64,000 nt of DNA from Escherichia coli. GTDB taxonomy: Bacteria; Pseudomonadota; Gammaproteobacteria; Enterobacterales; Enterobacteriaceae. Location of the stretch: the NCBI RefSeq assembly GCF_050920415.1, contig NZ_CP169309.1, one strand, 5' to 3'. The notes under the pieces are model-generated. The model was not told the origin of the DNA and did not search any database. It saw only the letters and a program-made list of their open reading frames with translations. The stretch's first letter is position 1. Each line of letters starts with the position of its first letter. Made by a program: the position numbers and the translations under genes. This document shows, piece by piece, positions 3,510-38,787 of this stretch.

Positions 3510-3596
3510 AACATTTAAGCTGATGACCACCACGCTTTTTATTGACCATTTTGCACGCAAACTGGAAAACCTGGCGTCGTCATCTATTCTTAAAGG

Positions 3597-3699
3597 GCAA
3601 GGCAACTAAGCCTGCATTAATGCCAACTTTTAGCGCACGGCTCTCTCCCAAGAGCCATTTCCCTGGACCGAATACAGGAATCGTGTTCGGTCTCTTTTT
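3597..3699 (+). ncRNA. sdsR: SdsR (RyeB) RpoS-dependent sRNA
   Basis: Sequence GCAAGGCAACTAAGCCTGCATTAATGCC...CCGAATACAGGAATCGTGTTCGGTCTCTTTTT matches SdsR as recalled; sigmaS-like -10 TCTATTCTT at 3582..3590; 3' terminator hairpin plus T-run. Confidence 0.7.
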
Positions 3700-3833
3700 A
3701 TCTGTTAAAAGCCAGAAGCATTCCCTTCGCTGACTTTATAGTCAACCATAACACACACTCTACTGTCTGAGTCCAGCGTTTTTTAACATTCTTGTTAAGA
3801 TTATGTGATCTTTAGCGCGGGAGGAAAATATTG

Positions 3834-18542: not shown

Positions 18543-19211
18543 TCCTTCCTCAATCTTGAGTAACCCCGTCGTTGAAGGGTTACTCAATTCATCCTGATTA
18601 TACGCACTGTCATGGTGCAACTGCTTCAAATTAAAACTCTGGTCTGACTTCAAATAATTATCATATTATTTATTTGCGTAACGGGATATCAGAAAAAGAT
18701 ATTTAGCCCATTAATTTATTAGGATGTTTACATCGGATTTGTGATTAAGCGTGTTATTATTTATTAGCGAAACGTTTCTCTCTTGATTTTTTTGCGCATT
18801 CATCAATTTTTCTTATTTTAAATTTACAATACCTTTGGCGATTGACTTCTCTTTGGGGTGATTGATAGCCGTTAACTGACTGTTTTATGAGAAAAAGTGA
18901 TATAACTTTTTATTCATTGCATAGCAGAAAATGTGATATTGCACGCACTATGTAATAACTTCTCCCATTGGCCTGGAACAACTGAACTTATTGAACTATG
19001 TTAGAAAATACGTCAGTTTAAGTATCTGCCTGAACTGGCAAGGTTAAGCACAATGATATATCGGCGCGTATTCCGTTGCATAAGTGTGCAAAAAAAGTGG
19101 AAGACGTATCGAGATTTGTGCGTCTGATCGAGACATGTTTAAAAATGGCTTGCCATAATTAACGTTGTATGTGATAACAGATTTCGGGTTAAACGAGGTA
19201 CAGTTCTGTTT

Positions 19212-19355
19212 ATGTGTGGCATTTTCAGTAAAGAAGTCCTGAGTAAACACGTTGACGTTGAATACCGCTTCTCTGCCGAGCCTTATATTGGTGCCTCATG
19301 CAGTAATGTGTCAGTTTTATCTATGTTATGCCTGCGGGCGAAGAAAACAATCTAA
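19212..19355 (+). CDS. yobF: small protein YobF
   Basis: 47-codon [50 protein letters not shown] read by eye, 12 nt upstream of cspC; absent from ORF track. Confidence 0.8.
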
Positions 19356-19367
19356 GGAATTTTTCAA

Positions 19368-19577
19368 ATGGCAAAGATTAAAGGTCAGGTTAAGTGGTTC
19401 AACGAGTCTAAAGGTTTTGGCTTCATTACTCCGGCTGATGGCAGCAAAGACGTGTTCGTACACTTCTCCGCTATCCAGGGTAATGGCTTCAAAACTCTGG
19501 CTGAAGGTCAGAACGTTGAGTTCGAAATTCAGGACGGCCAGAAAGGTCCGGCAGCTGTTAACGTAACAGCTATCTGA
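19368..19577 (+). CDS. cspC: cold-shock-domain protein CspC
   Basis: ORF 69 aa [20 protein letters not shown]... with RNP motifs. Confidence 0.97.
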
Positions 19578-19622
19578 TCGAATCCACTGATCTGAAGTGT
19601 GAATACGCTTCAATCTCGCTAT

Positions 19623-19649
19623 AAAGCCTCGTCGAATGCGAGGCTTTTT
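19623..19649 (+). terminator. intrinsic terminator of cspC
   Basis: stem AAAGCCTCG / CGAGGCTTT followed by TT. Confidence 0.8.
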
Positions 19650-19742
19650 ACTTTGCTTTATCTTCGCTCCTGGCATTCGGATATTTGCCCGCCGCGTGAT
19701 TCGCGTTACACTTGCGGCCTTTAGTATCCTGCCGGAGTTGTC

Positions 19743-20552
19743 ATGTCGTTTTCCTGTCCACTTTGCCATCAGCCTCTTTCGCGTGAAAAAAACAGCTATA
19801 TCTGTCCCCAGCGACATCAGTTTGATATGGCGAAAGAAGGGTATGTCAATCTGCTGCCCGTTCAGCATAAACGGTCTCGTGATCCGGGCGACAGCGCGGA
19901 AATGATGCAAGCACGACGCGCATTCTTAGATGCCGGACATTATCAGCCGCTGCGTGATGCAATTGTTGCCCAACTGCGGGAACAGCTTGATGAAACGGCC
20001 ACGGCGGTGCTGGATATCGGCTGTGGTGAAGGGTATTACACACACGCATTTGCCGATGCGTTGCCCGAAATCACCACGTTTGGTCTGGATGTCTCGAAGG
20101 TGGCGATCAAAGCTGCGGCAAAACGCTATCCGCAGGTCACTTTTTGTGTCGCTTCCAGTCACCGTTTGCCGTTTGCCGATGCCAGCATGAACGCCATTAT
20201 TCGCATCTATGCGCCGTGTAAAGCAGAAGAATTAGCGCGCGTAGTGAAGCCCGGCGGTTGGATCATTACAGCTACGCCGGGACCGCGACATTTGATGGAG
20301 CTGAAGGGGCTGATTTACAATGAAGTACATCTTCATGCACCTCATGCAGAACAGCTGGAAGGTTTTACATTACAGCAGAGTGATGAATTGTGTTATCTGA
20401 TGCGTCTTCGCGGTGATGAGGCCGTCGCGTTATTGCAGATGACGCCGTTTGCCTGGCGTGCGAAGCCAGAAGTCTGGCAAACGCTGGCAGCAAAAGAAGT
20501 GTTTGACTGCCAGACGGACTTTAATATTCACCTCTGGCAGCGCTCTTATTAA
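19743..20552 (+). CDS. rlmA: 23S rRNA m1G745 methyltransferase
   Basis: ORF 269 aa; N-terminal Cys4 zinc motif (CPLC...CPQRH) and SAM-binding DIGCGEGYY. Confidence 0.9.
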
Positions 20553-21115
20553 CCGTGGTAGTGCGTCCAGAGGATCTGGACGCCGATGCCGATCAGCACC
20601 AACCCGCCGAGAATTTCTGCTTTTTTCCCAATAATTGAGCCGATAAAGCGGCCAACCATCATCCCTAATGTCGACATAATCAAGGTTGCACAACCAATGG
20701 CCAATGCGGTCGCGATAATGTTGACCTGCAGGAAGGCCAGACCAACCCCCACAGCCATCGCATCCAGGCTGGTGGCAATCGCGGTGGTTACCAGTAGCCA
20801 GAAACCGTGTCGACGGCGCGGTTCTTCATCTTCATCATCTGCGCCACGAAAACCCTCAATAATCATTCGCCCGCCGAGGAATATCAGCAGCACAAACGCA
20901 ATCCAGTGGTTCCATTCAAGGACAAACCGGCTGGCTAACATGCCCATTCCCCAGCCGATCAGCGGTGTCAGGGTTTCGACGGCACCAAAAATAAGGCCGG
21001 TTCGCAACGCTTCAGAAAATTTCGGTTTATGGAGGGTGGCACCTTTACCGATTGATGCAGCAAATGCATCCATCGACATACCAAACGCAAGAAGAACAGT
21101 AGCAGTGATATTCAT
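20549..21115 (-). CDS. mntP: manganese efflux pump MntP
   Basis: ORF 20549..21169; start at [21 protein letters not shown]... gives 188 aa. Confidence 0.9.
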
Positions 21116-21124
21116 GACAACGTC

Positions 21125-21345
21125 CTGACCGGGGTATCCATAAAACACACCATCGCCCCCAGCAAACATGCATACATGAACAACAAACCGCGATGATTTT
21201 CGCGTTCATGCAGGCATAGCGATTGATGTGCATATGGTCTCGCCTGACTGAAAGTGTTCAGTCCGTACGTGCCACGTTTTGCAACGAGTATGTTGACACG
21301 TACATTTCCGGAATCTGGAAATCGGCTACTCCCCAAATGAGGGCG
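21125..21345 (-). ncRNA. yybP-ykoY manganese riboswitch in mntP 5' leader (approximate bounds)
   Basis: Minus-strand motif GGGGAGTAGCC (complement of 21324..21334) typical of the yybP-ykoY class; long untranslated leader upstream of mntP. Confidence 0.5.
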
Positions 21346-21543
21346 CAACATTAACATATTTTTAGAATATAAAACAACTGTTGGGATATATTATTTCAGC
21401 AGTTAATTGATAACGATTTTCATTTAGATTTATATATCAATGAAACGTTAAAATAAATAACAAATAAGGGATGGGATAATATAGCCTAAGCTATGTCTGA
21501 TTATTTAAAATACAGCAAACATAGCTTTGGCTAAATTCATAAC

Positions 21544-37055: not shown

Positions 37056-38741
37056 TTGAAGAAGGTTTGGCTTAACCGTTATCCCGCGGACGTTCCGACG
37101 GAGATCAACCCTGACCGTTATCAATCTCTGGTAGATATGTTTGAGCAGTCGGTCGCGCGCTACGCCGATCAACCCGCGTTTGTGAATATGGGGGAGGTGA
37201 TGACCTTCCGCAAACTGGAAGAACGCAGTCGCGCGTTTGCCGCTTATTTGCAACAAGGGTTGGGACTGAAGAAAGGCGATCGCGTTGCGTTGATGATGCC
37301 TAATTTATTGCAATATCCGGTGGCGCTGTTTGGCATTTTGCGTGCCGGGATGATTGTCGTAAACGTTAACCCGTTGTATACCCCGCGTGAACTTGAGCAT
37401 CAGCTTAACGATAGCGGCGCATCGGCGATTGTTATCGTGTCTAACTTTGCCCACACTCTGGAAAAAGTGGTTGATAAAACCGCCGTTCAGCACGTAATTC
37501 TGACCCGTATGGGCGATCAGCTATCTACGGCAAAAGGCACGGTAGTCAATTTCGTTGTTAAATACATCAAGCGTCTGGTGCCGAAATACCATCTGCCAGA
37601 TGCCATCTCATTTCGTAGCGCCCTGCACAACGGCTACCGGATGCAGTACGTCAAACCCGAACTGGTGCCGGAAGATTTAGCTTTCCTGCAATACACCGGC
37701 GGTACCACTGGTGTGGCGAAAGGCGCGATGCTGACTCACCGCAATATGCTGGCGAACCTGGAACAGGTTAACGCGACTTATGGGCCGCTGTTGCATCCGG
37801 GCAAAGAGCTGGTGGTGACGGCGCTGCCGCTGTATCACATTTTTGCACTGACCATTAACTGCCTGCTGTTTATTGAACTGGGTGGGCAGAACTTGCTTAT
37901 CACTAACCCGCGCGATATTCCGGGGTTGGTAAAAGAGTTAGCGAAATATCCGTTTACCGCGATAACCGGCGTTAACACCTTGTTCAATGCGTTGCTGAAC
38001 AATAAAGAGTTCCAGCAGCTGGATTTCTCCAGTCTGCATCTTTCTGCAGGCGGTGGTATGCCTGTTCAACAAGTGGTGGCTGAACGTTGGGTGAAACTGA
38101 CCGGACAGTATCTGCTGGAAGGTTATGGCCTGACCGAGTGTGCGCCGCTGGTCAGCGTTAACCCGTATGATATTGATTATCATAGTGGTAGCATCGGTTT
38201 GCCGGTGCCGTCGACGGAAGCCAAACTGGTGGATGATGATGATAACGAAGTACCACCGGGTCAACCGGGTGAGCTTTGTGTCAAAGGACCGCAGGTGATG
38301 CTGGGCTACTGGCAGCGTCCGGATGCCACTGATGAAATCATCAAAAACGGTTGGCTACACACTGGCGACATTGCCGTAATGGACGAAGAAGGTTTCTTAC
38401 GCATCGTTGATCGCAAAAAAGACATGATTCTGGTTTCCGGTTTTAACGTCTATCCCAACGAGATTGAAGATGTCGTCATGCAGCATCCTGGCGTACAGGA
38501 AGTCGCGGCTGTTGGCGTACCTTCCGGCTCAAGTGGTGAAGCGGTGAAAATCTTCGTTGTGAAAAAAGATCCATCGCTTACCGAAGAGTCACTGGTGACT
38601 TTTTGCCGCCGTCAGCTCACGGGCTACAAAGTACCGAAGCTGGTGGAGTTTCGTGATGAGTTACCGAAATCTAACGTCGGAAAAATTTTGCGACGAGAAT
38701 TACGTGACGAAGCGCGCGGCAAAGTGGACAATAAAGCCTGA
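37056..38741 (+). CDS. fadD: long-chain fatty acid-CoA ligase
   Basis: ORF 36990..38741; known TTG start at 37056 giving (M)[15 protein letters not shown]..., 561 aa; AMP-binding motif [16 protein letters not shown]. Confidence 0.95.
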
Positions 38742-38760
38742 GCGTTAAGTCAGTCGTCAG

Positions 38761-38787
38761 ACGCCGGTTAATCCGGCGTTTTTTTTG
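38761..38787 (+). terminator. intrinsic terminator of fadD
   Basis: stem ACGCCGG / CCGGCGT, loop TTAAT, followed by TTTTTTTT. Confidence 0.85.

Follow-up and report, generated by a model that had tools for sequence, protein, structure and literature searches.

Members of the yybP-ykoY riboswitch family described from Firmicutes and Xanthomonas (B. subtilis yybP/ykoY, L. lactis, X. oryzae) have much in common with the element analysed here, namely a four-way junction with coaxial legs, an A-minor contact made by an adenosine of loop L1 and a helix P1.1 that is stabilised by Mn2+ (PMC12153347). While most of these members drive an intrinsic terminator, the expression platform of the mntP type ends at the Shine-Dalgarno sequence and controls the initiation of translation, termination being carried out by Rho (PMC11647493). 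The mntP riboswitch itself is already known and ranks among the best-characterised riboswitches of E. coli. For the K-12 element (mntP, formerly yebN), a crystal structure of the apo aptamer is available (PDB 4Y1M; Dambach 2015 and Price 2015, via PMC12153347), and both of these studies as well as Waters 2011 are used here as relayed by PMC12153347, PMC11647493 and PMC8754126. Moreover, Mn-dependent reporter and probing data have been reported for this RNA (PMC12153347, PMC11647493, PMC9603457). Mn2+ bound at the L1/L3 interface stabilises P1.1, and the regulatory decision is made co-transcriptionally when the transcript measures about 205 nt; refolded mntP RNA fails to switch, its ribosome-binding site is dynamic, and a clear Mn-dependent change at this site was not seen by probing (PMC12153347). 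Manganese turns mntP translation on and partly relieves Rho-dependent termination (PMC11647493, PMC12360218), while MntR activates the gene (PMC11647493). Another E. coli member, alx (PRE), has the same L1/L3 metal-sensing core, the same P1.1 switch-helix concept, a translational ON switch and likewise a manganese exporter as regulated gene (PMC12153347). In contrast to the four-way junction and single-helix platform described below, however, it displays a three-way junction with divergent L3, responds to alkaline pH in addition to Mn and possesses a multi-helix platform including an intrinsic terminator (P6). An alx-type copy was not found in the DNA studied here by Rfam gathering scan and motif search.

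The stretch of DNA analysed, hereafter the window, comprises 64,000 nt of E. coli sequence. Its minus strand carries yobD (22002-21544), a 428-nt intergenic region and mntP (21115-20549), corresponding to the yobD-mntP-rlmA locus of K-12 with its intergenic region of identical length. With a probability of roughly 95%, the region in front of mntP is the mntP 5'-UTR harbouring the E. coli mntP yybP-ykoY manganese riboswitch, and the 81-aa ORF drawn across it is a chance open frame and not a gene. The main features of the locus are as follows.

20549..21115, minus strand: mntP coding sequence, the regulated gene, 188 aa plus stop, Pfam Mntp PF02659 with E = 1.7e-55, manganese efflux pump MntP in RefSeq
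21116..21340, minus strand: mntP 5'-UTR, the whole riboswitch (aptamer and expression platform), with +1 taken as 21340 from the literature
21123..21126, minus strand: Shine-Dalgarno sequence AGGA, 7 nt before the mntP AUG (21115-21113), read from the sequence
21112..21357, minus strand: mechanically called 81-aa ORF, rejected as a gene
21478..21537, minus strand: two MntR-box-like palindromes upstream of the promoter, with cores ATAGC-N4-GCTAT (21481-21494 and 21521-21534)

The original prediction had placed the motif GGGGAGTAGCC on the minus strand at 21324..21334, within a leader of about 220 nt upstream of mntP. This was borne out: the motif reads from 21334 to 21324, occurs only once in the 64 kb when both strands are searched and was absent from all dinucleotide shuffles (0/100), and the identity of the downstream gene agrees with both its Pfam domain and the RefSeq annotation. 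From the start of the motif to the mntP ATG (21115), the distance amounts to 219 nt, while published lengths of the 5'-UTR range from 225 to 229 nt. The shorter value was adopted, since only with +1 at 21340, and thus a UTR of 225 nt, do A11 in L1 and A48 in L3 of the published numbering (PMC12153347) fall on conserved adenosines (21330 and 21293); a UTR of 229 nt (PMC11647493) would place +1 at 21344. A scan for the sigma-70 consensus found no promoter upstream of mntP, so the start site is placed solely by the published numbering. The RefSeq records inspected annotate yobD and mntP alone at this locus and carry no riboswitch feature. Nearly every complete E. coli genome contains the locus, a 511-nt query giving matches in 5,422 of 5,426, of which only 6 reach at least 99% identity.

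For comparative analysis, mntP loci were collected from Enterobacteriaceae (best 80 of 312 relatives retrieved), and 55 distinct aptamers were aligned. The arrangement of GGGGAGTAGCC followed by mntP is common to 79 species. The aptamer consists of the following parts.

21231..21339, minus strand: yybP-ykoY Mn2+ aptamer, four-way junction, from hand-derived fold, covariation and RF00080
21339-21333 with 21237-21231, minus strand: helix P1.1, 87.6% paired, compensatory changes present
21326-21324 with 21244-21242, minus strand: helix P1.2, 100% paired, compensatory changes present
21324..21334, minus strand: GGGGAGUAGCC, comprising the end of P1.1, the L1 5' strand (A11 = 21330) and the P1.2 5' strand, with alignment positions T7-A16 invariant in 55 orthologs
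21304..21322, minus strand: P2 hairpin AUUUCC/GGAAAU with 7-nt loop, 100% paired, compensatory changes in 3 of 6 pairs
21265..21303, minus strand: P3.1-L3-P3.2 arm, helices 4 and 5 being 99.5% and 100% paired, with compensatory changes
21296-21287, minus strand: L3 5' strand UCAACAUACU, A48 = 21293, L3 invariant
21286-21275, minus strand: P3.2 with GCAA tetraloop
21246..21263, minus strand: P4 hairpin GACUGAA/UUCAGUC, all 7 pairs changed on both sides
21236..21244, minus strand: GGCGAGACC, comprising the P1.2 3' strand, the L1 3' strand (GAGA) and the start of the P1.1 3' 'switch' strand, assigned by hand and covariation

Across the 55 orthologs, 96.3% of base-pair cells of the four-way junction are paired, compared with 25-45% in slid controls, and double-sided (compensatory) changes occur in 19 of the 33 aptamer pairs, values matched by none of 500 shuffles. 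The four-way junction is thus supported independently of Rfam. All six helices of the two coaxial legs (P1.1/P1.2/P2 and P3.1/P3.2/P4) are present, and the sequence elements typical of the family are found exactly where this fold demands them. The conserved L1 sequence GGGGAGUAG with its extruded adenosine is exact at 21334-21326, and the L3 internal loop, UCAACAUAC followed by UGG, is formed by 21296-21288 and 21274-21272. L1, L3 and the 3' GAGACC closing strand are invariant across the orthologs, including L3 columns T47-T53, C55-T59 and T69-G71 as well as G100, G102, A103, G104, A105 and C106 of the closing strand. Finally, the element lies directly 5' of a gene encoding a manganese exporter (PF02659), as expected for a family whose members occupy leaders of manganese-exporter or membrane-protein genes (MntP, TerC/Alx, P-type ATPase, UPF0016). 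Every structural feature of the family that was looked for is hence in place; the one departure is a score below the Rfam cutoff, which the validated reference misses as well. The reading of the motif as the hallmark of a yybP-ykoY manganese riboswitch was therefore correct, as it represents the L1 loop of a complete, covarying aptamer that is nearly identical to the K-12 RNA.

Downstream of the aptamer, segments from GAGACC to the ATG were compared across orthologs. The expression platform turned out to consist of a conserved core and a variable insert of 0-50 nt, with these elements (labels W to Z are used below).

21146..21230, minus strand: helix H5, with 5' arm CACAUCAAUCGC (21230-21219) and 3' arm GCGAUGGUGUG (21156-21146), enclosing the lineage-specific insert
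21175..21210, minus strand: variable central hairpin CAUGAAC...GUUCAUG within H5, from alignments and folds
21157..21162, minus strand: Y, a conserved CUGGGG in the H5 loop, candidate decoy partner of Z
21138..21142, minus strand: W, UAUGG, alternative partner of the P1.1 3' strand CCAUA (21237-21233), which would extend H5 in the Mn-free state
21129..21134, minus strand: Z, CCCCGG, 2 nt 5' of the Shine-Dalgarno sequence, pairable with X or Y
21336-21331, minus strand: X, the aptamer 5' strand UUGGGG, partner of Z

When aligned without gaps, the window and K-12 MG1655 differ at 23 of 511 nt. In the aptamer the two are identical save for P4-loop base 21256 (C in the window, U in K-12), and L1, L3, P1.1, H5, W, Z and the Shine-Dalgarno sequence are shared. 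Five substitutions fall in the platform (21196, 21191, 21187, 21150 and 21121); none of these affects a pairing proposed to switch, and three lie inside the lineage-specific central hairpin. The remaining 17 are located 5' of the transcript, among them a G-to-T change at 21350 in the putative -10 region. The riboswitch is hence essentially unchanged in the window. From this identity to the K-12 RNA, we infer selective Mn2+ binding and Mn2+-dependent activation also for the window allele; likewise, Mn2+ binding, the ON direction, involvement of Rho and co-transcriptional switching are adopted here from published work on the K-12 RNA, which is nearly identical, and should apply by analogy.

Helix H5 is 92.8% paired with double changes in 9 of its 11 pairs (slid controls 11-48%), and it is predicted in constrained and free folds alike. 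The central hairpin enclosed by it is far more variable. An insertion of about 12 nt (approximately 21201-21190) is common to the window and K-12 and absent from cryptic-clade Escherichia, and a polymorphic 1-nt indel site is situated near 21197/21196. In Kosakonia, Enterobacter and Kluyvera, where platforms measure 75-78 nt, the hairpin is missing, and the long E. coli version therefore appears dispensable.

The alternative partners in the remainder of the platform are strongly conserved. Pairing of the P1.1 3' strand with W is possible in 96.5% of cells versus 23-42% in slid controls, and it forms in the free MFE structure of the window as well as of all four other genera inspected. Comparative data thus identify W as the putative invader of P1.1, which fits the report that the 3' half of P1.1 alternatively pairs within the expression platform (PMC12153347). 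X and Z are able to pair in 100% of cells across 69 sequences, and this helix is formed in the window MFE structure; X:Z is likely a consequence of the former pairing that ties the segment next to the Shine-Dalgarno sequence to the 5' end. As W, X and Z are all three invariant in sequence, their pairings are without covariation support, and we infer the exact pairings that gate the ribosome-binding site. Two further candidates were discarded. A GAGACC:GGUC helix as OFF pairing is possible in 98.9% of cells, yet it is lost in Cedecea L068, a sequence that retains both X:Z and Y:Z. A direct conserved anti-Shine-Dalgarno was not found among the platform segments, and the pairing of the Shine-Dalgarno sequence with codons 3-5 seen in the window MFE structure is not conserved as the coding sequence varies. 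At the Shine-Dalgarno sequence itself, GGAC is kept in all enterobacterial orthologs save the Cedecea type (GAGG).

Based on these elements and the published behaviour of the K-12 RNA, the following mechanism can be proposed. Nucleotides 21339-21231, roughly the first 110 of the RNA, fold into the four-way junction, in which L1 (GGGGAGUAG) and L3 (UCAACAUAC) dock and bind Mn2+, thereby locking the short P1.1 'switch' helix. Without Mn2+, UAUGG (21142-21138) would capture CCAUA (21237-21233) and extend platform helix H5, upon which the freed UUGGGG (21336-21331) could pair with CCCCGG (21134-21129) adjoining the Shine-Dalgarno sequence. In this Mn-free state, initiation at mntP is expected to be poor, leaving untranslated RNA exposed to Rho-dependent termination. 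With Mn2+, P1.1 would hold, so that the ribosome-binding region is released, MntP is made and Rho termination is partly relieved.

Simple equilibrium modelling did not reproduce this switch. In a comparison of free and aptamer-enforced equilibrium folding for 79 species, the ribosome-binding site was more open with the aptamer in only 22 of 79, and on average it was slightly less open. Equilibrium folding was hence rejected as a test of the switch, in agreement with the published result for refolded RNA. With explicit ON and OFF constraints, the Shine-Dalgarno sequence was modestly more open in the ON state in 55 of 79 species (0.46 vs 0.38), which are not independent of each other.

An additional, rather doubtful element of the platform would be an H-type pseudoknot between Y and Z, in which the strictly conserved (A/G)CUGGGG (21162-21157) might pair with CCCCGG(U) (21134-21129) and, as a decoy, keep Z off the aptamer 5' strand, balancing ON against OFF. 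Y and Z are pairable in 99.2% of cells, with one compensatory pair in Cedecea L068 (Z = CCCCAAC, Y = GUUGGGG). Mean duplex energies are -3.9 kcal/mol for P1.1, -7.3 for the P1.1 3' strand with W, -9.5 for X:Z and -12.5 for Y:Z, and Y:Z exceeds X:Z in stability in each of the 69 sequences. Adding Y:Z would bring the ON state (-70 kcal/mol) close to OFF (-81 kcal/mol). Since the pseudoknot requires UAUGG to be free of the P1.1 3' strand, it would be confined to the Mn-bound state. If true, it could link P1.1 status to ribosome access, a connection left unresolved by the published probing. More generally, dissection of the platform yields testable pairings for the way in which the state of the aptamer may reach the ribosome-binding site.

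The 2025 co-transcriptional study makes no mention of the Y element.

Among the competing explanations, the one that survives best, though still very improbable, is that the leader encodes a small protein or uORF, be it the 81-aa frame, a 40-aa PGAP product or a 21-codon in-frame version, coupled to mntP through an ATGA overlap. The 81-aa ORF is indeed listed at 21112..21357 on the minus strand exactly as the original prediction described it. It does not, however, lie entirely in the leader as had been stated, since its ATG (21357-21355) is located 17 nt upstream of the +1 adopted here (13 nt for a UTR of 229 nt). At its other end, the TGA (21114-21112) shares bases with the mntP ATG to give ATGA. 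This arrangement is kept in 76 of 79 species but is a trivial outcome of MntP beginning with a conserved Met-Asn. The window, K-12, four cryptic-clade Escherichia and all Escherichia examined that lack a 1-nt insertion have the 81-aa frame open; between the L1 motif and the ATG, however, it is open in 15 of 79 species, the two remaining frames being open in 9 and 13, and median open lengths are 65 nt for the 81-aa frame versus 90 and 67 nt. Four of the seven differences between the window and K-12 are synonymous in this frame, a sample too small to carry weight. Reading-frame preservation is lacking, with indels between genera of +2, +4 and +7 nt in the P4 loop and of -13, -17, -18 and -19 nt in the linker, in addition to +1/-1 changes within the last 40 nt.

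Within E. coli, an allele with a 1-nt insertion in the hairpin loop shifts the 81-aa frame and is found exactly in 922 of 5,426 genomes, including O157:H7. The insertion fuses two frames into the 40-aa ORF that PGAP annotates in many E. coli genomes as hypothetical protein WP_000547919.1. Annotated inside the platform in no fewer than 922 complete E. coli genomes, this protein is very likely a false gene call, and the curated K-12 annotation contains no gene between yobD and mntP. The 21357 ATG lies upstream of the inferred transcription start, reading of the sequence revealed nothing resembling a Shine-Dalgarno sequence before it or before internal ATGs, and no Pfam family matched the 81-aa product at E <= 1. 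A uORF starting from the conserved AUG of UAUGG was considered and dropped, this AUG being read in three different frames in different genera. The experimentally unsettled route from aptamer to ribosome-binding site leaves some room for a translated leader, while the nucleotide conservation that such a reading could invoke is explained by the RNA pairings; a literature search did not find a paper linking mntP to a uORF. The leader thus shows no coding constraint, as judged by frame openness, indels, the insertion allele and Pfam, and the earlier view of the ORF as spurious and reflecting structured RNA is upheld. In practice, mechanical ORF tracks always draw the 81-aa frame over the mntP leader in K-12-like alleles.

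A slightly poorer prospect is offered by the idea that the window allele switches via an intrinsic terminator, as in Bacillus and Lactococcus members, with hairpin CGCGAAAAUCAUCGCG followed by GUUUGUUGUU (21204-21189). Such a site does exist on the correct strand within the leader, as its only terminator-like hairpin, and the window-specific 21191 G and 21187 U give it, compared with K-12, a perfect stem and a longer U-rich tail; besides, terminators are used by other family members and by E. coli alx (PMC12153347, PMC11647493). The stem, however, is no longer than 5 bp, and a G breaks up the tail. One site of this kind is not unusual, given 0.3 +/- 0.6 in shuffled sequences, and the MFE structure places the tail into the larger CAUGAAC/GUUCAUG hairpin. 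Among 5,426 E. coli genomes, only 6 carry exactly this allele, and other genera lack the whole segment, while published control of mntP is translational and Rho-dependent (PMC12360218, PMC11647493).

Less probable again is a start of MntP upstream at ATG 21169, giving an ORF of 206 aa and rendering the platform partly coding. The in-frame ATG, 54 nt upstream, opens an uninterrupted ORF in the window and likewise in K-12, other Escherichia and some Citrobacter. In most species, however, an in-frame upstream ATG is absent, and the frame is interrupted in other genera by +1/-1 indels within GGA(A)UA(U)CCCC. Moreover, the Pfam Mntp domain and the conserved N-terminus start only downstream of the annotated ATG, itself preceded by AGGA at a distance of 7 nt, and both RefSeq and the K-12 annotation give MntP as 188 aa.

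Returning to the leader as an untranslated manganese riboswitch, its treatment by Rfam deserves separate consideration. The original prediction had named a covariance-model scan as a check, and the result is formally borderline without refuting the assignment. A scan of the whole window at the default gathering threshold reported four RNAs, the riboswitch not among them. In E-value mode, however, RF00080 (Manganese/yybP-ykoY), the model built for the family to which the Firmicutes and Xanthomonas members belong, recognises the sequence at 21342..21246 on the minus strand with 41.9 bits and a highly significant E = 8e-10, compared with a gathering score of 45 bits. The experimentally validated K-12 mntP element scores 41.6 bits and thus falls below the cutoff as well. 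In all 19 loci scanned (K-12 and 18 orthologous loci from other species), the match lies directly 5' of mntP, yet a score of at least 45 is obtained in only 7 of 19, with 12 of 19 remaining below. In the printed alignment, L3 is matched to the consensus GUCAACAUACU with posterior '*', some 75 consensus columns belonging to the last hairpin of the model are deleted, and the 3' P1 strand has no columns. Given these deleted columns and the equally low score of K-12, the sub-threshold result is a property of the RF00080 model and cutoff when applied to the short-P4 E. coli type. That the cutoff misses a validated E. coli element (41.6-41.9 vs 45 bits) is an annotation caveat, and the value of the present locus lies in annotation practice, its biology adding nothing new. 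The silence of the default scan is also all that speaks for GGGGAGTAGCC being a chance occurrence devoid of structured RNA, a notion of practically negligible probability in view of the E-value of 8e-10, the covarying four-way junction, the near-identity to the crystallised aptamer and retention of the motif upstream of mntP in 79 species.

Besides the riboswitch, the locus carries the two MntR-box-like palindromes, positioned near -162 and -204 relative to the aptamer motif, which are kept in most of the 79 loci. The exact ATAGC-N4-GCTAT core is also present 5' of K-12 mntH, with 0.08 matches expected by chance. These palindromes probably represent the transcriptional arm of manganese control and would add regulation by MntR upstream of the riboswitch.

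Experimentally validated as it is, the E. coli mntP riboswitch falls outside what the Rfam gathering score of the yybP-ykoY family (RF00080) will report, as the cutoff of 45 bits is too high for it. The leader in the window scores 41.9 bits and that of the K-12 reference 41.6 bits, both below this value, and a sub-cutoff score was likewise obtained for 12 of 19 enterobacterial orthologs. A riboswitch feature is absent at the mntP leader locus in the RefSeq records inspected. The features considered at this locus are the following.

Features of the mntP leader and its upstream region (window coordinates unless stated otherwise)
21246-21342, minus strand: RF00080 match (counterpart in comparison locus L002, 5462-5558)
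about 21233-21112, minus strand: region corresponding to the 40-aa 'hypothetical protein' WP_000547919.1, called by PGAP within the riboswitch expression platform of E. coli TUM18530 (comparison locus L083, 483-605)
21189-21204, minus strand: intrinsic-terminator-like hairpin CGCGAAAAUCAUCGCG, then GUUUGUUGUU, within the mntP leader
21478-21499 and 21516-21537: two palindromes with an ATAGC-N4-GCTAT core (21481-21494 and 21521-21534), some 140-200 nt before the transcription start

The protein WP_000547919.1 very likely stems from a mistaken gene call. Its reading frame consists of two leader frames joined by a 1-nt insertion. Out of 5,426 complete genomes of E. coli, 922 carry the exact insertion allele behind it, O157:H7 and O145 among them.

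Further variation is found in the central hairpin of the platform, where an insertion of about 12 nt (window ~21190-21201, minus strand) is common to the window and K-12. Loci L003-L006, which come from cryptic-clade Escherichia, lack it, even though L003 and the window encode MntP proteins with 100% identity. In Kosakonia, Enterobacter and Kluyvera, the entire central hairpin is lacking, leaving platforms of 75-78 nt versus 126 nt. The terminator-like hairpin, which sits inside a larger hairpin, arises from two substitutions relative to K-12, and the exact 40-mer of the site occurs in only 6 of the 5,426 E. coli genomes; it probably reflects chance.

Within the loop of the platform helix, CUGGGG (21157-21162, minus strand) is strictly conserved and complements CCCCGG (21129-21134, minus strand) adjoining the Shine-Dalgarno sequence. 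Pairing of both segments would possibly form an H-type pseudoknot, which is unmentioned in the 2025 probing paper. In all 69 of 69 sequences this duplex is more stable than the alternative with the aptamer 5' strand, and Cedecea displays a compensatory change in the pairing.

Upstream of the leader, the palindromes keep near-constant positions in most of 79 species, and an identical core lies directly upstream of K-12 mntH. They look like MntR operators, putative sites that would constitute the transcriptional arm of manganese control. Matches to mir-282-type Rfam models on both strands are spurious products of the palindromes themselves. The putative -10 region, immediately before the transcription start, carries a G-to-T change relative to K-12 (21350, minus strand; TAAGGT to TAATGT), and a strict sigma-70 scan returned no promoter there.

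Downstream, mntP (minus strand) and rlmA (plus strand, 19743-20552) are convergent, their 3' ends overlapping by 4 nt (20549-20552) as in K-12. An Rfam cspA thermoregulator match (135.7 bits; 19192-19652, plus strand) spans the leader and coding region of a 69-aa cold-shock-protein ORF (19368-19577), which is cspC in K-12 and annotated as cspE in one RefSeq record. Additionally, strong Rfam matches were obtained at 3559-3703 (minus/plus strand) for SraC/RyeA (175 bits) and SdsR/RyeB (114 bits), two sRNAs that overlap in antisense, and at 38700-38785 (plus strand) for sroD (115 bits).
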